Shown here one piece after another: positions 22,326 through 46,020 of a DNA stretch of 64,000 bases. Location of the stretch: the NCBI RefSeq assembly GCF_988242995.1, contig NZ_OZ547043.1. One strand, 5' to 3'. The notes under the pieces are model-generated. The model saw only the letters and a program-made list of their open reading frames with translations. It ran no database searches and was not told the origin of the DNA. A program made the translations under genes and the position numbers. Position 1 is the stretch's first letter. Every line of letters begins with the position of its first letter.

Positions 22326-24722
22326 GTGGATATGGCAGCAGTAAAAATCTCAGGTGTGCTGAAAGATGGTGCGGGAAAACCAATACAGAACTGCACTATT
22401 CAACTGAAGGCAAAGCGTAACAGCACCACGGTACTGGTGAACACGGTGGCTTCTGAAAATCCGGATGAAGCCGGACGTTACAGCATGGATGTTGAGTATG
22501 GCCAGTACAGCGTCACCCTGCTGGTTGAAGGTTTTCCGCCTTCACATGCCGGGACCATTACCGTCTATGAAGGCTCCAGACCAGGTACGCTGAATGATTT
22601 TCTCGGTGCCATGACGGAAGATGATGTCATGCCGGAGGCATTGCGTCGTTTTGAGGCAATGGTGGAAGAAGCGGCACACAACGCTGAAGCCACCTTTCAG
22701 AGCGCAGCGGCGGCAAAGAAATCCGAAGCTGCTGCGGCATCATCGAAGAACGCGGCGAAAAGCTCAGAAACGAATGCAGCTAACAGCGCACAGGCGGCAG
22801 CGGCCTCACAGACTGCATCGGCAAACTCCGCGACAGCAGCCCAAAAATCAGAAGCCAACGCGAAAAATAGCGAAACAGCCGCAAAGACGAGCGAAACCAA
22901 CGCGAAGTCCAGCCAGACGGCAGCGAAAACCAGCGAAACGAATGCCAAAACCAGTGAAACTGCGGCGAAAAGCAGTCAGGCTGCAGCAGCCGAAAGCGAG
23001 AGTGCTGCAGCCGGTTCTGCGACTTCAGCAGCTGGATCAGCAACTGCTGCGGCTAACAGCCAGAAAGCAGCGAAGACGAGCGAAACTAACGCAAAGTCCA
23101 GCCAGACGGCAGCGAAGACCAGCGAAACGAATGCCAAAGCCAGCGAAACTGCGGCGAAAAACAGTCAGGATGCAGCGGCCCAAAGCGAGAGTGCCGCAGC
23201 TGGTTCTGCAAGTGCGGCGGCTTCTTCTGCCACTGCATCAGCCAACAGTCAAAAAGCTGCAAAAACCAGTGAAACCAACGCAAAGGCGAGCGAGACTGCG
23301 GCGGCGAACTCGGCGCAAGCATCGGCAGCAAGCCAGACAGCAGCTAAAGCAAGTGAAGACGCAGCCAGAGAGTATGCAAGCCAGGCAGCGGAGCCGTATA
23401 AACAAGTTTTGCAGCCGTTGCCCGATGTGTGGATACCGTTTAATGATTCACTGGATATGATTACGGGCTTTTCGCCATCATATAAAAAAATTGTTATTGG
23501 TGACGATGAAATAACGATGCCTGGCGACAAGATTGTTAAGTTTAAACGTGCATCAACGGCTACATATGTCAATAAATCCGGGGAACTGAAAATTGTAGCA
23601 ATCGACGAACCACGATTTGAAAAAGATGGTTTACTGATTGAAGGCCAACGAAGCAATTCATTTGCAGATTCTAATAATCCGTCGTTATGGAATAAAGCCG
23701 CACAATTGAATATAACCAATGGCAAAGATGAATTTGGTTTTACCTATGGTCTTATTAATGTTGTAGCCGAAACAAGCACTACCGGACGCGCTACATTTAT
23801 TTCAACTGGATATCCAAGATCAATGCCAGCAAAGGCAGGGGAATCTCTTACAATATCCTTCCGAGTTAAAAAAGTTGCTGGTGATGGGGTTCTGACAGTA
23901 TATCCGAGGATTGCTTATGTAAATGATGATGGCTCTAGTAATACTCTTTCTTCGAATGCCTATATAAATGCGGAAACGGGCGAAGTTTTAGGAACTCCTG
24001 CAGGCGGAAGCTCGACGAAAGTATATACTAAAATTGAATCCAATGGATGGTTGTTTGTATCTTTGACTTATAAAACCGCAGAAGACAAAACATTTTATGG
24101 TCGAATTGAAGTTGGTGCACATAAACGAGATATACAGATTGGTGATCAGTGGATGATAACGACACCGCAATTTGAAGTTGGTAGCAGTGCTTCTTCTTTT
24201 ATTATTTCTGGATCTGCGACAACGACAAGAGCGAGTGATTTAGTTACAATCCCGATCAAAAACAATATCTACAATTTACCGCTTACTGTAATGTGCGAAA
24301 CTAATCTTAATTGGGAATGGGATTCTCCGCCAAATGCCGCACCTAGAATAATGGATTTTACGGGTCAAAAAGCGGGGCAGGCCATAATTTATGGTCTACG
24401 TGGTGGGACTGCGGTTGATACTGGATCGCCCTATGTTGATATGGGTGATGGCGCTACAAGAATTAATAAGTATGTAAAAACAACAAATCGAAAGTTTATC
24501 TCTGGCTTTAGGTGTAAAGAAAATGGAGATACTCAAGCGTTTTGTAATTCTGTTTTTTCATCGTCTGCAAGGACAGATTATATTCATGTAGCACCAACTG
24601 CAACGATAAGATTTGGTGGGCAAACCAGTACGGGTGAGCGTCATATATTCGGACACATCCGAAATTTCAGGATTTGGCATAAAGCGTTAACTGATGCACA
24701 AATGGGGGAGAGTATTAAATGA
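22326..24722 (+). CDS. stf: Side tail fibre protein, mosaic: lambda Stf-like N-terminus, Ala/Ser/Thr-rich tandem-repeat shaft, unrelated AT-rich C-terminal domain
   Basis: N-terminus MDMAAVKISGVLKDGAGKPIQNCTIQLKAKRNSTTVLVNTV... matches lambda Stf; C-terminal about 440 aa (from ...QPLPDVWIPFNDSLD) has no lambda Stf similarity and lower GC. Confidence 0.8.
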   Translation: MDMAAVKISGVLKDGAGKPIQNCTIQLKAKRNSTTVLVNTVASENPDEAGRYSMDVEYGQYSVTLLVEGFPPSHAGTITVYEGSRPGTLNDFLGAMTEDDVMPEALRRFEAMVEEAAHNAEATFQSAAAAKKSEAAAASSKNAAKSSETNAANSAQAAAASQTASANSATAAQKSEANAKNSETAAKTSETNAKSSQTAAKTSETNAKTSETAAKSSQAAAAESESAAAGSATSAAGSATAAANSQKAAKTSETNAKSSQTAAKTSETNAKASETAAKNSQDAAAQSESAAAGSASAAASSATASANSQKAAKTSETNAKASETAAANSAQASAASQTAAKASEDAAREYASQAAEPYKQVLQPLPDVWIPFNDSLDMITGFSPSYKKIVIGDDEITMPGDKIVKFKRASTATYVNKSGELKIVAIDEPRFEKDGLLIEGQRSNSFADSNNPSLWNKAAQLNITNGKDEFGFTYGLINVVAETSTTGRATFISTGYPRSMPAKAGESLTISFRVKKVAGDGVLTVYPRIAYVNDDGSSNTLSSNAYINAETGEVLGTPAGGSSTKVYTKIESNGWLFVSLTYKTAEDKTFYGRIEVGAHKRDIQIGDQWMITTPQFEVGSSASSFIISGSATTTRASDLVTIPIKNNIYNLPLTVMCETNLNWEWDSPPNAAPRIMDFTGQKAGQAIIYGLRGGTAVDTGSPYVDMGDGATRINKYVKTTNRKFISGFRCKENGDTQAFCNSVFSSSARTDYIHVAPTATIRFGGQTSTGERHIFGHIRNFRIWHKALTDAQMGESIK
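22883..23300 (+). repeat. About 189-bp tandem repeat (2 copies plus a partial third) inside stf
   Basis: Near-identical DNA blocks starting aagacgagcgaaac...; protein repeat AAKTSETNAKSSQTAAKTSETNAK... Confidence 0.7.
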
Positions 24723-36383: not shown

Positions 36384-37520
36384 TTACGAAAGCCCGCTCC
36401 CCGCAAGGACTGACGCGAGATAGTTTCTGCCCATGGCTGCTTTTCGCATCTTACGTCTTAACCCTGCCTTGAATATCTTATCATTCGTTAAAATATTAAT
36501 AGCGATGTGCCGTATCCCTGAATATAATTCTGCGGCGTTTCCTCTTCTTATTTTGCAGTCGTCTTCATTCATTACCACGTCCAGACGCCAGTGCAGCTTA
36601 TTCTCCACGTGCCAGTGGTTTCGGATTGCTGTGGCGAACTTCTCTGCGGTTAAATCAGCAGAACTGATATAATATCTGACCGTCATTTCTGGCTCTTTCT
36701 TTTGTTCTGCTATTATTGACCGAAAGGAGACTGCCACACATAATTTCTTCAGTCCTTTCCATTCAAACGTGAAATCAATAAGTTCATCAGGGACATCGCA
36801 AACAATATGAAGACGGATTTCTTCTCTGCCGTGACTCTTTTCACTAATGGCGTAACTGTCATGCTCTGGATTATTTAATTCTTTCAGTGGAAATTTTTCC
36901 TCAAAGGCTTTATTAAGCCGCCCCTGGTTTCCTTTTACAGCGAATAAATAATCACCGCCCTGTTTTTGTATCTTCTCTGCAATATCTTTCTGGCAACCCA
37001 TCGCATCAGTTGTGATGATTTTTCCTTTAATATACAGCATGTTAAGAAGTTCTGGGATAGCTGTAATCTCATTAGATTTCTCATCCGTTCTGATCTGTCC
37101 GATGACCAGACTGTGCATTGTTGAGAACGCACTAATGACATGAATCGCTCCCCTGCGGCGACTCTTGTCATAAGAATGCCGGAGTGTTTTTCCATCGATT
37201 GCAATAACGTCTTTATCATCTGAAGTATGGCAATCTCGCATCCAGTTAATAAAGCACTCGTGAAATTTTGAAGGACTGATACAGGATACAACTCTGGCGA
37301 TGGTATCGTGAACAGGAATACCATTTTCAAAATCACCATATTGTTTTAAAAAATCGAGATGTGTTTCCCCAAAATCCTCTATATCTTCCCAACCTTCTGC
37401 ACCAGAAATAACGGCACAAATAGTCAACAGTAGAATATCCGATAATTTATGTTCCACTTTCCAGGCTTGTCTGTAATCGGGGATAATAGAAATATGCTCC
37501 ATCAATTTTTTAAGTTCCAT
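36384..37520 (-). CDS. ISAs1-family transposase (H-repeat-associated protein), apparently full length
   Basis: 378-aa ORF matching E. coli H-rpt proteins (YhhI/YbfD type) associated with Rhs loci. Confidence 0.8.
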
Positions 37521-37786
37521 TTTGTTCTCCTTAATTATGTAAGGAGTATTTGATCATGTATAAGCAATAAAAACAGCTTTAGGTAATGAGGAATATCTCA
37601 ATTTTTAAACATAAAATGCGAATTATTTAGTACAAAAAAGCAGCGTTACGTGATCTTTCCCTGGTGTACTTCTGATGATCTTTCCCTGGGTTAAACAGGT
37701 GGTGAAGGGAATGAAGAATGGGATATCCGGCGTATTACGCGAGGTATAAAAATAAAAGCCGGGAGATTGTCACTCCCGGCAACATA

Positions 37787-38068
37787 TTATTTTTTTATTT
37801 CATTATATCTGATAAAAAAAGTATTTAGTGCATCATGTTCATCTTGTGAGAACAATAAAATAATTTTATCCCATGAATGTCCTGTTACTCCATAATAGTC
37901 TTCAATATAAGATTGAAGCCTTATTAATATCTCAATATTGACGATTTCTTTTGGCTCTCTCATTTGCCATCCATCCAGGAAAGCTTTTAACGCCGATATG
38001 GTATGCCTGCTTAAATATAAAGCTGGTCTTTTTTCTATCATATCAATCAGTTTAACAATATCATTCAT
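37787..38068 (-). CDS. Putative Rhs immunity protein (93 aa)
   Basis: Small AT-rich ORF starting 2 nt after the rhs stop on the same strand; position typical for cognate immunity. Confidence 0.55.
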   Translation of the reverse strand: MNDIVKLIDMIEKRPALYLSRHTISALKAFLDGWQMREPKEIVNIEILIRLQSYIEDYYGVTGHSWDKIILLFSQDEHDALNTFFIRYNEIKK

Positions 38069-38070
38069 AA

Positions 38071-41000
38071 TTAAAACCTTGATGGAGTAATGGTGTATTC
38101 GCCAGGAGAGTATATATCATTCAGCCAATCTTCATACTTTATACCAGAAGGATTCATATTATCAAAAACTGTATCACCTACTTTTATTGCTTCATGATGA
38201 CCATTAGTTGCTATATTTTTACCTATTCTATCACTCCATATATTGCCAAAGGCGCCTTGTTTATTTTTAGTTTCGAGTATGAGATGCTCACCATTTACCC
38301 CAGCTTGTTGCATTTTACTTTTTAACGCTGCGGCAAATTTATCGCATTGAAAAAGCTGTTTAAACTTATCACTTATTGTTGTTGCAAGATCCCTTGTTTT
38401 TGCGATATCGCAAATGGTTAATCCTAATGGATCAATATAACCAAGGGGATTATGAACATATGCATAATTGTTTATCCCGCCTCTCAGCCCTATCGGATCA
38501 CTCACCAGGTACATCCCGGTTTCCGGCTCGTAATACCGGAACCGGTTATAGCACAGCCCGGATTCCGCATCCTGCCACTGTCCTGCATACAGCAGGCCGG
38601 GGTCGGCTTCCGGGTCCAGCTCCCCACGCGGGTCCGGGTAGCCGGTGTCTGCGGGCAGGCTGAGTGCCAGCCCCCACAGGCTGGTCTGTCCCGGTCGCCA
38701 GACGGTTTTACCTTCACTGTTAAAGAGCATCAGCGGCCGGCCCGTCAGGTCGCTCACCGCATGATTCGTCCGCGTCACCCACTGCGGGGCCACGGACGGA
38801 TGCGCCTGCCGTACCCGGCTGCACTGCTGGCTTATCAGCTCAAAGCCGTTAAACACCAGGTGCCGCACACTGTACAGTTTATCATCGCGGTATTCCCGGA
38901 TTTCCGCAATACTGTCGCCATCCCACAGGTACGTAAAACGGATTTTCTTCCGGTCGCAGCGTTTCTCTGTTCGTCTGCCGCTGGCATCGTGGCGGTATTC
39001 CCACTGTTCACCCTGTGCGCTGCAATACCCGGTCAGCTGGTCCCGGCTGTCCCACCGGAACCGCTCTGTTTCCGGGCGGTAACCGTCACGGTGTCTGGTG
39101 CGGCTGACCATCCGGCCTGCGGCGTCATAGTCATACTGCGTGTTTCCGGCCTGTTTCAGCCGGTGGCCTCCGGCATACTGGTCAGTCTCTTCACTTATCC
39201 GGTGCCTGCCCGCAGACTGCGCCTTCAGGTAGCCGCAGCTGTCATAGCCATAAGTCTCATCGCCTTCGCCATAGCCCAGCCCGGTGCCTGAGGCTGTCAC
39301 CGCCGTGACCTGGCCGTTCCGGTCCAGCCGGTACTCCCGCCGTGTTTCCCGTCCGTAGTCTTCCCGGCTGGTGACAGCCGACACATTACCCGCGCTGTCG
39401 TAACGGTACTCCCGCACCAGTGAGGGGAGCAGCCCGCCCCATGTGGCTTCCGCCGGGAAAAATCCGGCGCGCTGGCTGACAGCCTGACCGGCTGCATTCC
39501 AGCCCTGCTCACAGGCAAAACCCCGGTTACTGTGCCGGAGCACTTCACGTCCTGCCTCATCACGGCTGAACGTCAGCGTCTCATCCCCCGGCAGGATAAC
39601 CTCCGTCAGTTCTCCGGCGGCGTTGTAGCGGTAGGTGGTTTTCAGCAGGGATTCACCGGGGTGTCTGTCGCGTTCATCTTCCGGTGGCAGGATACAGCGG
39701 ATGACGGTGTGTTCATCGGGGTGGTGGTATTCAATGGCCCGTCGGCCCTGAGTGGTGACATTCACCCGGCCGCGTTCGTCATAGCCGGTGCGCTGTGATG
39801 TGCCGTCCGGGCTGAAGATACCCGTCAGCCTGCCGGATTTGTCATACGCATACTGCGTTTTGCCTTCCGGCGTGATGACTTCTGCCAGGCGGCCTGCGGC
39901 GTCCCGGCTGTAGAGGATAGTTTCCTCCAGGCCGTTGACCCTGGCGGTACACAGGCCATCGGCGTCATAGCGGTAACGCCAGACCACGCCGCCCCAGTCA
40001 CGCTCTTCCGTCACCCGGCCGCAGTTATCCAGAACATAAAGATATGACTCACCCTGCGGATTGATGACTTCTGTCAGTTGCAGCGTGTCTTTATCGTAGC
40101 GGTACTGCCAGCGGTGGCCTTCACCGTCCGTTCGCGCCACCGGCAAATCAAACGGGCCGTACTCCATTGTCCAGACAACGCCATTGCCGTCCGTCCAGGC
40201 CAGCAGGTTGCCGTGGCGGTCGTTGCGGAATCCTTCCGCGCCGGTTCCAGTGCGCTCAAGGCCGCTCAGTTTATGGTGCTGCTGCCACTGCAACCGCACT
40301 GACTGACCGCCGGGGCCGCGCATCTTCACCGGCAGGTCGTGACCACTGTATTTGGTGTGGTGTTCGCGGCCCATCACGTCGGTGAGTGTTTCCGGCCGGT
40401 TGTGGCGGTCGTACTCTATGCCCAGACGCCGTTCATCCTGGCGGAATATCCCCGACAGCAGCCCCTGAGCGGTGTATGCCAGCCGGGTCTCTTCGCCCTG
40501 TGGCGACACCTGACTTACCGGCAGGCCGCGTTCATCACACTGCTGTGTCCACGTCTGCCCGGCAGGGTCGGTGATGTTGCTGAGCAGGCCGCGCTCATCA
40601 TAGCGGTACAGCCACTCCGCGCCGTCTGCCGCCGTGTAACGGCTTAACTGACCGAGTGCGGCGTTGTCTTCAAATTTCTCCACCCGCCCGGCAGGGGAGT
40701 GGCGGGCCAGCAGGTGATGGAATTCATCCCATTCATACGTGGTGGTACTGCCGTCCGGCGCGTCTTCCCGCAGGATATTGCCGTCAGGATCATAGTAATA
40801 ACGGTGAATGCCCTTGCCGTCCGTCACGGTGGTGCAGCCGTCCCCATAGTCCAGCGTGGCGTTGTAATAGCCCTCCGCCCCGGTGACGGTCACGCACCGG
40901 CCCTGTGTATCGTAGGTGAAACGGCTCCACGTCTGGTCGTTATCGGACCAGCGGATGATCCGGTCCGCATCGTCGTACTCATAAAACAGGTGGTAGTCCA

Positions 41001-42735
41001 GCCGCGCATCCGCTTCTGTCAGCCGCCCCCGCGCATCCTGTTCGTAGGTCGCCAGCGTCTGTATGCCGTTATCCGTGCGGTGAATGGCTTTCAGGTAGCC
41101 GCTGGCGTGGTACGTCAGTTTAAGCCGGATCCCGTCAGTGTGACTGACACCTGTGATCCGGTACTGGCTGTCGCGCTCAAACGTGATGCGGTTGCTGGCG
41201 GTGTCGCTCATCCCGCCCAGCATGTACATCCGGTCTGCGGGGCTGTGTGCCAGACGGTCATCGCTGGTATCGTCAGTCACCGGGTGGCGCAGACGCATTC
41301 CCGGAAAGGCGTCATAAAAGAAGCGGCTGCTCAGTGCATCCCTGTCGAACAGCTCCAGGTAATCATCGCGGCGGCGCAGAATGTACTGGGCGTGATACGG
41401 GTTAACCGCCGTATCACTGTCACCGTCGAAGGCAAATCTCAGCGTGGTTCCCTGGCTGATGATATCCACCCGGTTTCCCTGTTCACGCACCCAGGCGTAT
41501 TCGCTCCAGGAGTCGCTCCAGCCCACGCCCGTCAGGCCATGCAGTGGCAGTACAGAACTGTGGAAACGGGTGAAGGAGAGGGGGAGTGTCTGGCCCAGCG
41601 TAAAGTCGGTACGTTCGTCGCAGTATGCGCCGGTTACCGGATCGACAGGATCTGTTACCCATCTGATGACTTTATTGGCAATACTTTTTAACGACTTACC
41701 TGTTTTCCCCAGCAACGCGCCGAGCTTTGCCCCCAGCAGCTTCCCGCTTTTCCCCAGCAGGTTTCCCAGTTTGCCGAGTCTCGCCAGATTCTTCAGTTTT
41801 CCCAGCAGTCCCGCTGGCGGCAGAAGATAGCTGGCTATCGTTATTCCCCCCAGGATCATTCTCTGCCACGGCGGGAACTCCGGCTGGATATCCAGATAGG
41901 TGACCTGCTCACCCCCAATAAAGACGTCCGGCGAACCTTCCACGATTGCCGCACTGCACTCCAGTTTGTCCCCCTTGCGTGCAGCAGGCTGATTGTTGAT
42001 AAAGACGTTGCTGCTGCCCTGGGCTATCCTCGGCGGTTTGTTCTCCTTGTCGCAGAGCGCCGTGTCCTCACCGGCTTCCGGGAAATCCACGTCTTTTTTG
42101 ATTTCGCCACGCCCGCCCACCATGGTGGCAAACTCCATTAATACCGGACCGGCGGGAAACAGAAGCGATGCGCCGGCGCTGACGCGATCCATAATACCGG
42201 CATTGCTGTCCGTCAGGGTGATAACAGCGTTCCCCCAGGCCTTCGCCAGTGGTACTGCTTTTTCCGCTGCCGATTCAAGCAGGTCAGTGGCAATATCCCC
42301 CCATGAAGGTTCCCCCTGTGGTAGAGAGGGTATTGCTTCAGTCAGGGGAGGAGGGGGAAGGGTGACGGCGGCCCTGGCAGCGGGCTTTCCGTTAATTTTT
42401 ACATTTTTAGAACCAGTATTGATGGCCCCGTCCTTGTCACAAAAGCTGTTTATCCATGACTCAAGCTGGTTCTGTTTCTCCTCCACATAATCACTCGCCT
42501 TATAGCTGGCATACATCAGCGCAGGCACCAGAACCAGCGCATAAGGGCCGGTGGCGCAGGCGGCCATAATCAGGCAACCTTCTGCGATAGTTACTATCGC
42601 CCCCAGCACGGCCCCTGCCAGTGCCCCCAGAAAACTTTTATGCTGAATTTCATCGTCCAGTCTGGCGGCAGGTGGGCCGGACTTCTTTGCTGCCAGCATC
42701 TCTGCAATGGCTTTGTCGTTGGCTGCCCGTTTCAT
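38071..42735 (-). CDS. rhs: prePAAR/PAAR-Rhs type VI secretion effector with unassigned C-terminal toxin domain
   Basis: 1554-aa ORF; N-terminal prePAAR motif AARLDDEIQH, hydrophobic TM region, YD/Rhs repeats, terminal DPIGL...PLGYIDPLGL motif, then an AT-rich 116-aa C-terminal extension. Confidence 0.85.
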   Translation of the reverse strand: MKRAANDKAIAEMLAAKKSGPPAARLDDEIQHKSFLGALAGAVLGAIVTIAEGCLIMAACATGPYALVLVPALMYASYKASDYVEEKQNQLESWINSFCDKDGAINTGSKNVKINGKPAARAAVTLPPPPLTEAIPSLPQGEPSWGDIATDLLESAAEKAVPLAKAWGNAVITLTDSNAGIMDRVSAGASLLFPAGPVLMEFATMVGGRGEIKKDVDFPEAGEDTALCDKENKPPRIAQGSSNVFINNQPAARKGDKLECSAAIVEGSPDVFIGGEQVTYLDIQPEFPPWQRMILGGITIASYLLPPAGLLGKLKNLARLGKLGNLLGKSGKLLGAKLGALLGKTGKSLKSIANKVIRWVTDPVDPVTGAYCDERTDFTLGQTLPLSFTRFHSSVLPLHGLTGVGWSDSWSEYAWVREQGNRVDIISQGTTLRFAFDGDSDTAVNPYHAQYILRRRDDYLELFDRDALSSRFFYDAFPGMRLRHPVTDDTSDDRLAHSPADRMYMLGGMSDTASNRITFERDSQYRITGVSHTDGIRLKLTYHASGYLKAIHRTDNGIQTLATYEQDARGRLTEADARLDYHLFYEYDDADRIIRWSDNDQTWSRFTYDTQGRCVTVTGAEGYYNATLDYGDGCTTVTDGKGIHRYYYDPDGNILREDAPDGSTTTYEWDEFHHLLARHSPAGRVEKFEDNAALGQLSRYTAADGAEWLYRYDERGLLSNITDPAGQTWTQQCDERGLPVSQVSPQGEETRLAYTAQGLLSGIFRQDERRLGIEYDRHNRPETLTDVMGREHHTKYSGHDLPVKMRGPGGQSVRLQWQQHHKLSGLERTGTGAEGFRNDRHGNLLAWTDGNGVVWTMEYGPFDLPVARTDGEGHRWQYRYDKDTLQLTEVINPQGESYLYVLDNCGRVTEERDWGGVVWRYRYDADGLCTARVNGLEETILYSRDAAGRLAEVITPEGKTQYAYDKSGRLTGIFSPDGTSQRTGYDERGRVNVTTQGRRAIEYHHPDEHTVIRCILPPEDERDRHPGESLLKTTYRYNAAGELTEVILPGDETLTFSRDEAGREVLRHSNRGFACEQGWNAAGQAVSQRAGFFPAEATWGGLLPSLVREYRYDSAGNVSAVTSREDYGRETRREYRLDRNGQVTAVTASGTGLGYGEGDETYGYDSCGYLKAQSAGRHRISEETDQYAGGHRLKQAGNTQYDYDAAGRMVSRTRHRDGYRPETERFRWDSRDQLTGYCSAQGEQWEYRHDASGRRTEKRCDRKKIRFTYLWDGDSIAEIREYRDDKLYSVRHLVFNGFELISQQCSRVRQAHPSVAPQWVTRTNHAVSDLTGRPLMLFNSEGKTVWRPGQTSLWGLALSLPADTGYPDPRGELDPEADPGLLYAGQWQDAESGLCYNRFRYYEPETGMYLVSDPIGLRGGINNYAYVHNPLGYIDPLGLTICDIAKTRDLATTISDKFKQLFQCDKFAAALKSKMQQAGVNGEHLILETKNKQGAFGNIWSDRIGKNIATNGHHEAIKVGDTVFDNMNPSGIKYEDWLNDIYSPGEYTITPSRF

Positions 42736-42802
42736 CTAGCTGGCGACCATCGCCCGCTGCGACTGCATTCGCATTGCCAGCGTACCGCCTGCGGTCGCTC
42801 CC

Positions 42803-42878
42803 TGTGGCCCGCTCTGTCCTTCGCTCATTGGTTTTATCCCTGTGGCCCGCTCTGTCCTTCGCTCATTGGTTTTATCCC
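42803..42878. repeat. Perfect 38-bp tandem duplication in the eagR-rhs intergenic leader
   Basis: tgtggcccgctctgtccttcgctcattggttttatccc occurs twice back to back. Confidence 0.85.
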
Positions 42879-42886
42879 TGTGTCTG

Positions 42887-43348
42887 TCAGCGCGGCTGGT
42901 CCTGTTTGATATTCTTCTCCGGCGGTAATGGTGTGAAGCTCTTTATCACATCGAGCAGCATCGTCTTTTGACTGTTCTTAAGGGGTAAAGACGTACTGAA
43001 CGTGAAGGTCAGCAGCGTATCACCACGCCGCTGAAATACGGCTATCTGGCTAATCCGCCCCTGATTCCCTTCATCTTCCGGACCGTTCCAGGAATAATCC
43101 AGCAGCCAGGCCGGGGCCTCTGCCAGAGTGATTTCCCGGCAGGCATGTTCGGTGTAACCGTCCAGCTTGCCCTGGTACAGCGCCAGCGTTTCCTTGTACA
43201 GTTCTGGTGTCAGGGTTCCCTGTGGAACGGGTTCGCGGGTAATGACCAGGTTGATGCCACTGTTATCTGTGGACACCAGGACCTGCATTGACTGATCCTG
43301 CCATTGCGATGGCAGCTGAATATGACCTTCATTAAAAGTGAACTGCAT
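42887..43348 (-). CDS. DUF1795-family (Eag-type) effector chaperone
   Basis: 153-aa ORF between vgrG and the prePAAR-Rhs; size and position typical of Eag chaperones. Confidence 0.6.
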   Translation of the reverse strand: MQFTFNEGHIQLPSQWQDQSMQVLVSTDNSGINLVITREPVPQGTLTPELYKETLALYQGKLDGYTEHACREITLAEAPAWLLDYSWNGPEDEGNQGRISQIAVFQRRGDTLLTFTFSTSLPLKNSQKTMLLDVIKSFTPLPPEKNIKQDQPR

Positions 43349-43375: not shown

Positions 43376-45277
43376 TCAGTTAATGAAAACAGAACCGCCC
43401 ACGATGGTGATGCCATCCTTCGACAGCCTGATTACCGTCGATTCCCCGACCTGTAGCTGAATGCCATCCGGCGTCAGCGCAATTTTGCTTTCCTCCACGG
43501 CCAGCATAATTTGCTTAATTGCCGTATAAGCCTGTATACCGTCGCCTTCGCCACCATTGTTTACAGCGTCAACATGCACTGAACCGGCAATCGTGCCTCT
43601 GTCCTGAAAAACATCCTCAGATAAAGACCCTTTTAGTACGCCTGTGATTTTGTGGCCTTTTTCCACCGTAAGAAGGCGGTTACCTTCCTGGATCGTGACC
43701 GTCTGGTCATTTTTTACGGTTTCGCGGTGATCGTGTTTTACGGTGGTGGTACGGTCGTTGAGTACCTCGGTATCCATGTTCTTCTGGGCGTGGATGTAGA
43801 CCTGTTCTTTCCCTGTCGCATCGTCAAACTTCAGCTCGTTAAACCCGCTGCCCATATATGTTTTGGAGCGGATGGTCATCTGCGTCTTCGTTCCCGGCAG
43901 GCTGCCCGGCGAGCGGTTATCTTCGTGGTAGGTGCGCCCCATAATGATCGGCTGGTCCGGATCGCCGTTGAGGAAGTCCACAATGACCTCCTGACCCACA
44001 CGCGGTATCGCCAGATTGCCGAACCCGGCTCCTGCCCACGCCTGTGCCACACGGATCCAGCACGAACTGTCCTGGTCTGCCGGGTTATAGCGGTCCCAGT
44101 TGAATTTCACCCGCACCCGGCCATGCTCGTCGCAGAAGATTTCCTCTCCCGCAGGCCCCGTCACGACGGCGCTCTGTGGACCGTCCACTGACGGCTTTGG
44201 CTTCGGCTGTGGCCGCCACGTCCGGTCTGCCGGGATTACCACAAACTGGTTCTCCAGCGCCGTCCCCGCGCCCCGCCGTCCCGGCACCGCCTGCGGCTGT
44301 TCGCCGTGCAGTTCGCTCGCCACCACCTGCCATTCCCGGTTCAGGTTCGCCTGCGGATGCTCCGTCAGCACAATTCGCCGTCCCGGCCATATCTCCGGCG
44401 AGCGGCTCATTCCCCGCGCGGTTTCTGCGTTGTTTCGCCAGCCGTCCATCTGCCAGCGGGCAAAGTTCTGCCCGTGGGCGCTCTTGAAACGCCCGGGGTA
44501 GTCATACACTTCATACTGCGTGCGCTGGTAGTCCTGGTGCTGGCCTTCCTGTTCAAAACGTCCGGCCCAGCCGGGGCGTTTAAAGGTGTAGTCTTTGGTC
44601 ACCACGGAAGAAGGGCGGATTTGTGCGCTGTAGCGGAACTGGCTGATGCAGAGGGTGCTCACCTCGGTACGGGTGTTCGGGTTCCATGGGATTTCAAAAG
44701 ATTCGGGCAGATGGCGGACTGTGTCGCACAGCACCAGGCTCTGGTCGGTACTTTTGTAAGCATGCTCCTCATAAAAGAAGATGCCTTCCTCCGCCGCCAT
44801 CCGGCACAGGAAATCGTAATCAGTCTCACCGTACTGGACACAAAACTCACGGGAAGGATGCGGCTCGCTGAACAGCGGACTCCATTCGGTCACCCCGTTT
44901 TCCTGCAACATCGTGCCGAGGATGCTTCTGATGTCCTCGTTCTGGAAGATACGGAAGTTCTGACGCAGTCCTGCCCGCCACAGCGGCGGGCGCACCTTCA
45001 TGCTGTACAGCATCTGGTTTTTGTCGTTCTCCCCGAGTTCAAACCAGGTCACCACGCCTTTCACCCGGCGCTGTACGTCATCGCCCTGCCATACCGTCAG
45101 GTAGGCCATTTTGTCCAGCACCTGCGCAAATTCAAGGTAGAGAAACTGCTGACTGACCAGAGAAAGGTCAAGGGAAAAAAGTGAAGAGAGTGACTGGGTG
45201 AGATGAAAGGAGACCACCGCAAAAGCGTCCGGTGGCAGGCCGTCCACTTCCAGTGTGAAACGTAATCCGGTTGACAT
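43376..45277 (-). CDS. vgrG: Type VI secretion spike protein VgrG
   Basis: MSTGLRFTLEVDGLPPDAFAVVSFHLTQSLSSLFSLDLSLVS... gp27/gp5-like; the ORF could start 12 codons upstream at 45313. Confidence 0.85.
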   Translation of the reverse strand: MSTGLRFTLEVDGLPPDAFAVVSFHLTQSLSSLFSLDLSLVSQQFLYLEFAQVLDKMAYLTVWQGDDVQRRVKGVVTWFELGENDKNQMLYSMKVRPPLWRAGLRQNFRIFQNEDIRSILGTMLQENGVTEWSPLFSEPHPSREFCVQYGETDYDFLCRMAAEEGIFFYEEHAYKSTDQSLVLCDTVRHLPESFEIPWNPNTRTEVSTLCISQFRYSAQIRPSSVVTKDYTFKRPGWAGRFEQEGQHQDYQRTQYEVYDYPGRFKSAHGQNFARWQMDGWRNNAETARGMSRSPEIWPGRRIVLTEHPQANLNREWQVVASELHGEQPQAVPGRRGAGTALENQFVVIPADRTWRPQPKPKPSVDGPQSAVVTGPAGEEIFCDEHGRVRVKFNWDRYNPADQDSSCWIRVAQAWAGAGFGNLAIPRVGQEVIVDFLNGDPDQPIIMGRTYHEDNRSPGSLPGTKTQMTIRSKTYMGSGFNELKFDDATGKEQVYIHAQKNMDTEVLNDRTTTVKHDHRETVKNDQTVTIQEGNRLLTVEKGHKITGVLKGSLSEDVFQDRGTIAGSVHVDAVNNGGEGDGIQAYTAIKQIMLAVEESKIALTPDGIQLQVGESTVIRLSKDGITIVGGSVFIN

Positions 45278-46020
45278 AGCAACCTCCGTGAAAATGAATA
45301 ATAATCCGCACATATTGCATGTACAACATGTCGGGTAATGAGATAAGCGGGCCGGCTTCAGGTGTTACCGGGGAATATCAGAAAAGTGTCATGGTTATGT
45401 GAGAATTTTGTCCGGGATTTTACTTCAGAGAAACGGGGGTCTGTTGAGTCAACAAAATAATCACAAACTCAACTGACGGGTTCACGATGTTATTAAGGAC
45501 AGGCTCGTATATTACATCGAGTAACAAAAAAACACCTGATATGCAAAGTTAAACCAATATTCATAATGTCTTTTTATTCACAGTAATAAATAATTCAATA
45601 AACATCATTGAAATGAATGATGGTTTGTATAAGGAATATACGCTACCGCCCCACCCTGATAACATGATCTGCACATTGCCATCTTAACGTCGTTAGACGC
45701 TGGCTTAATAGTGAATATTTTAAATTAGGAATTTATCAAATCCACTTGATAAATAGATTGTGTGAATAATATAGAGATTAATGATGCCTGACTGCGCTTT
45801 ATATTATAGCCGATTCTTTTATAGTGATGAAAATTTAGTAATAGCATTGTGCTCTACAATTGGTAGAAACACGAATTTGATTAAATTGCATATCTAAATA
45901 TCTCGTAAATATCCGAAAATGAATAACCTTCGATTTCAGACGACCAATAAGGTCTTCCCTGTTTTATTGATAAATAATAACAGAAGGCGATACATCACTC
46001 TTTGAGTTTGAACTAACTAA

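Follow-up and report, generated by a model that had tools for sequence, protein, structure and literature searches.

The window analysed here, that is, the whole stretch of 64,000 nucleotides taken from contig NZ_OZ547043.1, has an E. coli backbone (nfrAB/ompT/envY 99.4% identical, cus operon about 98%) and carries an island flanked by cusS and nfrB. On the minus strand of this island the gene order is vgrG, eag, rhs, a 93-aa candidate immunity ORF and then ISAs1. The vgrG-eag allele is rare, its top match in 5426 complete genomes reaching 96.2%. In relatives VgrG is a 633-aa protein by annotation, and the equivalent start would lie here at about 45277. The features of the locus, from vgrG to the immunity gene, are the following.

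43376 to 45313, minus strand: vgrG (T6SS spike); longest ORF 645 aa, Pfam Phage_GPD, Phage_base_V and Gp5_trimer_C, annotated as VgrG in E. coli relatives.
42887 to 43348, minus strand: eag chaperone gene (DcrB/DUF1795 family), 153 aa, with its stop TGA at 42889-42887; Pfam DcrB, E=6.6e-28.
42875 to 42882, minus strand: 8-bp microhomology CACAGGGA, upstream occurrence, which makes up the '0.2' partial copy and overlaps the SD-like AGGGA.
42837 to 42874, minus strand: repeat copy 1, on the eag side, made of TAAAACCA, ATG and codons 2-10 and ending in CACAGGGA (Tandem Repeats Finder and exact pattern match).
42799 to 42836, minus strand: repeat copy 2, exactly the same as copy 1, with a start codon that matches the native rhs start (Tandem Repeats Finder, pattern match and alignment with E. 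coli).
42834 to 42866, minus strand: decoy mini-ORF MSEGQSGPQG, from the ATG at 42866 to the stop TAA at 42836-42834 (sequence and translation).
42736 to 42828, minus strand: truncated native 5' end of rhs, from the ATG at 42828 through 30 codons, MSEGQSGPQGATAGGTLAMRMQSQRAMVAS, to the amber TAG at 42738-42736 (translation).
42738, minus strand: nonsense mutation, C>T on the coding strand, changing CAG (Gln31) into TAG (comparison with contigs L007 and L008).
38071 to 42735, minus strand: rest of the rhs frame from Met32, 1554 aa (ORF list and Pfam).
40668 to 40762, minus strand: crossover interval, of type W, of an orphan Tox-PL-2 rhs fragment onto the main rhs (informative sites, with parents from contig L041).
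37787 to 38068, minus strand: candidate cognate immunity gene, 93 aa, starting 3 bp past the rhs stop (ORF list).

The frame that opens at Met32 contains the prePAAR motif AARLDDEIQH, a putative TMD, PAAR, DUF6531, RHS repeats and a Tox-PL-2 toxin tip, and its Pfam matches are PAAR_motif, RHS_repeat (nine times), RHS and Tox-PL-2. The AARLDDEIQH motif matched Pfam PF25799 at 25.3 bits against a cut-off of 25 and aligned with the prePAAR of Tre23 and Rhs1, and the hydrophobic stretch FLGALAGAVLGAIVTIAEGCLIMAACATGPYALVLVPALMY in the Rhs N-terminus aligns to the Tre23 TMD. In Escherichia prePAAR Rhs proteins 53 residues precede the AARxxDxxxH motif (window 42576-42828). Judged from its sequence, the locus is by descent a member of the class I prePAAR Rhs/Eag effectors, but its frame, read from the native start, is cut by an amber at codon 31. 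The candidate immunity ORF is 100% identical to the ORF that follows an orphan papain-fold toxin in E. coli JNE23-011. In that strain, annotation places a SymE-family toxin fragment in the stretch that separates the orphan immunity gene from ISAs1; the corresponding part of the window is 37520-37787.

Tandem Repeats Finder reported at 42799-42882 a period of 38 with 2.2 copies, 100% matches, 0 indels and a score of 168, and this is the sole 100%-identical tandem repeat within the whole 64 kb. By pattern matching, the 38-mer was found exactly twice in the window, back to back and with 0 mismatches (42799-42836 and 42837-42874), the chance expectation being 0.00 matches in 100 dinucleotide-preserving shuffles. 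The perfect 38-bp tandem duplication reported in the preliminary description at 42803-42878, which is the same two copies in another phase, is thus borne out. Its placement in a leader just 5' of the rhs start has to be corrected, since the rhs ATG lies within the repeat unit in relatives and in single-copy alleles. On the coding strand, the layout is the eag TGA, cagaCACAGGGA, two units of TAAAACCA ATG AGC GAA GGA CAG AGC GGG CCA CAG GGA, and then GCG ACC. Each unit contains an SD-like AGGGA that overlaps the preceding 8-mer, then 8 nt of spacer, and then rhs codons 1-10, beginning with the native ATG. The ORF that begins at the first ATG (42866) stops at a TAA coming from the spacer of the next unit, 5 nt before the second ATG (42828); this 10-codon decoy ORF is present in the two-copy haplotype only and is missing in all single-copy alleles. 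Two imperfect repeats were also seen in the window. One, at 41153-41210 in the rhs body, is a 31-bp x1.9 tandem repeat of 78% identity that is also found in L007 and probably reflects repetitive coding sequence. The other, at 22869-23303, is a 189-bp x2.3 repeat of 82% identity with nested 21- and 42-bp periods, located in a prophage tail-fibre-like gene (22326-24722); the 12 kb around this gene match lambdoid tail genes of E. coli prophages at 98.7%.

We then compared the window with single-copy versions of the same allele over 1.6-2.8 kb. Between 42398 and 43992, the duplication and the C>T change at 42738 are all that distinguishes the metagenome contig L007 from the window; the isolate L008 shows the same two differences only, over 2.8 kb, and the isolate L010 shows them plus one further SNP. 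All three carry the same eag-rhs allele with one unit, CAG and both 8-mers. In single-copy alleles CACAGGGA occurs twice, 38 nt apart, one occurrence overlapping the SD-like AGGGA and the other corresponding to codons 8-10. All the outgroup E. coli alleles and all the CAG alleles are single-copy, and in the E. coli-type alleles only AGGGA (5 bp) matches and the duplication is found in none. From these alignments we take the single-copy allele to be ancestral and both the duplication and the amber codon to be derived.

These sequences suggest a simple mechanism, in which the nascent strand would slip from the second 8-mer back to the first and recopy 38 nt, an event that would leave 8+38+38 bp of perfect periodicity. 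The 8-bp '0.2 copy' is accounted for by the 8-mer that single-copy alleles carry at each end of the unit. As the unit holds the SD, the spacer, the ATG and 10 codons, the downstream copy restores an unchanged start site and frame, and the upstream copy becomes the 10-codon decoy ORF. The slipped-strand origin proposed at the outset is therefore supported by the 8-bp microhomology flanking the unit in single-copy alleles. Another short duplication lies a few bases from the site of the 38-bp repeat in other strains. This 13-bp tandem duplication (CAGGGAGCGACCG x2, with CAGG microhomology flanks) is located at rhs codons 9-13 or so in E. coli 23AR1101 (L002, about 1655-1690), is also inferred over the same span for strains B27, HeN100 and TUM2820 (H3-H5), and frameshifts rhs, which PGAP annotates as 'frameshifted'. 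A BLAST query meant to count it did not tell the alleles apart, since it also joined pieces from single-copy genomes. Two slippage events, independent of each other and within about 40 bp, may point to a local hotspot.

Loci were gathered by exact-protein look-ups with the Eag protein (124 public contigs, under the name E. coli DcrB-related protein) and with the truncated product of 30 aa, which is called as a gene on 9 public contigs. Three haplotypes, combining the state of rhs codon 31 with the number of units, were found among these public assemblies.

CAG, one copy: L007, L008/L037, L010/L039, L013/L042 and L014/L043.
TAG, one copy: six contigs, L017-L022, which correspond to L027-L032 with longer flanks; these are short-read de Bruijn assemblies or, for one of them, of unknown method, and their copy number is given as assembled. 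Their sources are SRR34880697, SRR20994978, ERR10227551, ERZ27271663, ERZ27238431 and GCA_902848175.1.
TAG, two copies: the window, L009/L038, L011/L040, L012/L041, L015, L016 and L044.

No CAG contig with two copies was seen among the 5 CAG contigs of this allele that were examined, and every two-copy contig examined also carries the amber at rhs codon 31. In the 9.9 kb upstream, TAG contigs are 0-3 SNPs away from the window, except L040 (17, in one recombined patch), whereas CAG contigs are 55-199 SNPs away. TAG thus marks one clone, inside which the copy number varies. The variation between isolates that had been anticipated is in this way confirmed by the comparison of related strains, with 1 or 2 copies within a single clone, and the duplication has so far been found in this one E. 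coli clone only. An exact search for the window-type leader in a genome-contig collection gave no match. A search for related loci in the same collection returned only L006 (JAIJJM010000894.1), a 1154-bp contig binned as a Collinsella MAG with an Rhs fragment 99% identical; its Collinsella assignment is almost certainly a binning contamination. At the other end of the locus, in ISAs1 (window 36813-37347), L040 and L044 differ at 19 clustered sites of the transposase gene and almost nowhere else, a pattern that points to gene conversion by a second ISAs1 copy or to replacement with one; in both contigs the transposase is split into 235 + 100 aa.

Comparison of loci L027-L044 indicated that the window rhs (38071-41004) is a single-crossover fusion between a main rhs and an orphan Tox-PL-2 fragment. 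The unfused progenitor is represented by L041 (TAG, two copies), in which an AHH-tipped main rhs is followed by a downstream orphan Tox-PL-2 fragment. With the main and orphan sequences of L041 as parents, the informative sites resolved every fused allele of the clone into a clean single crossover, of one of three types.

Fusion W, 40762-40668: two copies of the repeat in the window, L040 and L044; one copy in L027, L028 and L031.
Fusion P, 40345-40260: two copies in L038; one copy in L029.
Fusion P+, 40042-39952: one copy in L030.

As read from these intervals, three independent orphan-toxin crossovers have occurred within the clone. Both copy states are found in W and in P, and the chance that the W and P intervals each arose twice independently is about 0.001-0.003; at least two changes in copy number therefore postdate the fusions. 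The 1/2 copy number is homoplastic within one near-identical clone, meaning that the duplication is unstable. Since L041 is unfused, it stands for the basal TAG locus, and it has 2 copies. Given a two-copy basal form, and since the loss of a tandem copy is easier than its regain, repeated loss from two to one is the more likely direction, so that the copy-number change was most likely repeated loss of one copy. The TAG one-copy contigs had been considered as an intermediate in which the nonsense mutation came first and the duplication second; this scheme was dropped because, from the crossover mapping, they can equally, and with more likelihood, be secondary losses.

We then considered the fate of Rhs. 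The rhs ORF from the second ATG stops at a TAG that abuts the in-frame ATG at 42735 (UAGAUG), and with this amber at codon 31 the native ORF ends after 30 codons. L010/L039 encode this Tox-PL-2 Rhs at its intact length of 1585 aa (31+1554). The ATG at 42735 comes to head the longest ORF only through the TAG at codon 31, where relatives have CAG; by this alignment it corresponds to Met32 and not to the native rhs start. The preliminary description overlooked the adjacent nonsense codon. Rhs would be produced only through termination-reinitiation at Met32 or through rare amber read-through, and the restart product would miss residues 1-31, whereas its prePAAR, TMD, PAAR, Rhs cage and toxin would all be retained. 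After termination, ribosomes can initiate again at a nearby start that has an SD, and in bacteria efficient reinitiation depends on such an SD lying 5' of the restart codon (PMC5972666, section 19). As Met32 has no Shine-Dalgarno sequence, reinitiation there should be inefficient. Reinitiation at the real ATG after the stop of the decoy ORF, 5 nt away, is plausible. The amber codon is the lesion that matters; the duplication alone does not disrupt rhs because the downstream copy preserves the start site.

The rhs gene of the window is probably a pseudogene or an attenuated allele, in the course of decay. Two clone members have further lesions. In L028 a 1-bp indel near window-equivalent 40992 causes a frameshift that splits the ORF into 614 + 940 aa, and L031 has a 75-bp in-frame deletion (window-equivalent about 39340-39414) at which the BLAST segments overlap by 12 bp, suggesting another repeat-mediated event. 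These extra lesions suggest relaxed constraint. In most clone members the 1554-codon frame is intact. In Salmonella, main-orphan fusions are positively selected because the new toxin is expressed (PMC3967940), and the recurrence of orphan fusions in this clone would argue on the same grounds that rhs is still expressed here.

We consider it likely that the repeat is an unstable slipped-strand (microhomology-mediated) duplication of the rhs initiation region, near-neutral and carried by an amber-bearing clone. The mutational class is ordinary and already known. By itself, the duplication probably changes expression little and is close to neutral under selection. The preliminary description had raised the possibility of an altered ribosome-binding context or spacing for the effector, and this was not sustained: the downstream copy keeps the SD, the spacer, the ATG and the frame, and the predicted accessibility is unchanged, RNA folding giving for the start region a mean P(unpaired) of 0.59-0.66 with one or two copies. 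Because the folding is the same for one and two copies, we dropped a structural riboregulator. Neither a promoter-like site nor a minus-strand terminator-like site was found between eag and rhs, the repeat region matched no Rfam family, and the two antisense ORFs across the repeat had no Pfam match. A leader-peptide or attenuator uORF was ruled out because the mini-ORF is confined to the two-copy haplotype and is not conserved, and there is neither a terminator/antiterminator nor a folding change. A phase-variable contingency locus was rejected as well: the copy number does vary, but there is no switch in frame, promoter or RBS spacing, the unit is 38 nt long and only two states, 1 and 2 copies, exist.

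A more elaborate regulatory role, which we regard as unlikely, would make the duplication an adaptive and reversible translational dimmer, in which the passage between one and two copies tunes the ribosome flux via the 30-codon ORF into the UAG-AUG restart. What is gained or lost would be a second SD+ATG unit, whose 10-codon ORF stops 5 nt ahead of the real ATG, and the clone would alternate between the two states in the manner of a contingency locus. The duplication is indeed seen on the TAG background only, but 5 CAG contigs of this allele are too few for the association with TAG to be significant. The changes in copy number, at least two in a clone with almost no SNPs, would fit such a role; spontaneous loss of short tandem duplications is nevertheless sufficient to explain homoplasy without selection. 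The rhs frame and the immunity gene are intact in most members and the orphan fusions, of a kind selected when rhs is expressed, recur in the clone (PMC3967940), but the L028 frameshift and the L031 deletion point to relaxed constraint. Finally, ribosomes can restart after termination at close SD-preceded starts (PMC5972666, section 19), but the downstream start site is identical in sequence in both states, with the same predicted accessibility, and a 38-nt unit with two states only is not a short multi-copy repeat. It is very unlikely that the 38-bp unit works as a reversible 'start-site cassette' that changes the ribosome flux into a restart-dependent, amber-interrupted rhs. If it did, the clone would have a heritable and reversible heterogeneity in the amount of a T6SS toxin, and this would be a contingency switch made from a duplicated initiation region and not from a simple-sequence repeat.

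It is quite unlikely, in our view, that the true rhs start is everywhere the ATG at 42735 (Met32), in which case the upstream 93 nt would be an untranslated or uORF-bearing leader, the TAG would be harmless and the duplication would change the leader/RBS context. The pattern of substitutions agrees with such a start: from our own count on alignment A2, within Escherichia, codons 1-31 show about 1, 4 and 4 substitutions at codon positions 1, 2 and 3, with no third-position bias, unlike codons 32-65 (about 2, 2 and 9), where the bias is clear. A search for homologous proteins returned only Escherichia fragments, many of them frameshifted calls from error-prone assemblies, and was useless for this test of codons 1-31. 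In addition, the first 16 or so residues of the Escherichia extension are G/P-rich and look unstructured, and Salmonella Rhs1 has only 3 residues before the prePAAR motif (PMC7773334), so that Escherichia may be able to do without its extension, and Rhs missing residues 1-31 could retain full function. The frameshifting 13-bp duplication in the same stretch is tolerated by other E. coli strains, but PGAP marks these alleles as frameshifted pseudogenes.

The translation signals argue against a start at Met32. Annotation of five E. coli relatives starts rhs at the homologous ATG (MSEGPGGPQGAT...), 19-20 nt past the eag stop, and in these alleles codon 31 is CAG, followed by MKRAAND.... About 2187 of the 5426 complete E. 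coli genomes carry this rhs 5' end, the homology beginning at the second copy. The MSEG ATG is preceded in E. coli alleles by GAGGG at 7-nt spacing, which is optimal, and no GGAG, GAGG or AGGA was found at -4 to -16 of Met32. SD strength was judged by core motif and spacing, and not by the extended 16S tail; the score of -8.8 kcal/mol that the latter gave for Met32 was set aside, as UGGUC pairs with GAUCA at a non-functional spacing. All the gene callers and PGAP place the start of intact alleles at MSEG, with products of 1585-1619 aa in E. coli relatives and in single-copy versions of the same allele. The protein comparisons lead to the same side: in an exhaustive HMMER search, distant full-length relatives had 31-39 residues before the GPxAAR motif and aligned from query residue 23 or so, compared with the 19 residues that a Met32 start would leave. 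In the study of Photorhabdus Rhs1 the 30 or so residues ahead of the TMD are treated as a single prePAAR domain, and cross-links join its N-terminal part to PAAR and VgrG (PMC8636562). From these alignments, translation of codons 1-31 in intact alleles is very likely.

An assembly or sequencing artefact, which the preliminary description had kept in mind, is extremely improbable, for although the copy number of the window is read from the assembly, and some assemblies of the same clone have one copy, the identical two-copy junction is found in at least six other independent assemblies (all those listed above besides the window) that span isolates and metagenomes and different pipelines, the 76-bp repeat is shorter than an ordinary read, and Logan contigs assembled at k=31 break where a two-copy template forces a branch. 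Four more Logan contigs indeed begin exactly at ATGAGC...CACAGGGA (L023-L026 with short flank, and L033-L036 re-fetched, which are largely the same records), one of these broken contigs recurring in at least 20 runs. In a k=31 unitig simulation the branch node appeared at that break from the two-copy template only, the one-copy template passing unbroken, so that these contigs indicate two copies.

The slipped-strand duplication in an amber-bearing clone has several consequences. The apparent rhs start is a restart codon that masks the amber, and effector inventories based on the longest ORF would count this Rhs as intact. The repeat provides a well-documented natural case of a short tandem duplication formed at an 8-bp microhomology and followed by repeated copy change in one clone, and the predictable k=31 assembly break that goes with it offers cheap copy-number genotyping in very large read-derived collections. 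The three main x orphan toxin fusions extend to natural E. coli isolates an observation made in the laboratory with Salmonella. T6SS biology is unchanged, unless the product lacking residues 1-31 is functional; if it were, the 31-residue extension of the Escherichia prePAAR Rhs proteins would be dispensable.

Microhomology-mediated short tandem duplications and their reversion are a classic class of spontaneous mutation in E. coli, known from the lacI mutational-spectrum literature. The repeat described here has their exact head-to-tail copies, the direct repeat (8 bp) bounding the ancestral unit, the single-copy progenitor and the recurrent copy change, and nothing essential differs; what is unusual is that the unit happens to hold the SD, the ATG and 10 codons, so that the gene struck by the duplication keeps its reading frame instead of losing it. 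Simple-sequence-repeat contingency loci likewise show copy-number differences among very close isolates, changed more than once, but here the unit is 38 nt, present in 1 or 2 copies, and neither the frame of the functional start nor the promoter/RBS spacing is shifted.

Early nonsense codons followed by translational restart are exemplified by lacI and T4 rIIB. The locus resembles systems of restart or termination-reinitiation (PMC5972666, section 19) by its early in-frame stop directly before an in-frame AUG (UAGAUG) and by its mini-ORF, which stops 5 nt from the next AUG with an SD just upstream of that AUG. It differs in that Met32 lacks an SD-like element, so that restart should be weak. 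With the class I prePAAR Rhs/Eag systems (Salmonella Rhs1-SciW, P. protegens RhsA-EagR1 and Photorhabdus Rhs1/Tre23-EagR; PMC7773334, PMC8636562), the locus shares the vgrG-eag-rhs-immunity order, the AARxxDxxxH motif, one putative TMD region, PAAR, the Rhs cage and a toxin at the C-terminus. The residues before the prePAAR motif number 53 in Escherichia, compared with 3 in Salmonella Rhs1 and about 30 in Tre23, and in this clone the frame is broken by the amber at position 31. Lastly, the main x orphan recombination described in Salmonella (Koskiniemi et al. 2014, PMC3967940) gives the same single-crossover fusion with an orphan toxin and its immunity gene; here it is found in natural E. coli isolates and on an allele with an early amber, and it concerns the 3' end of rhs and not the duplication.
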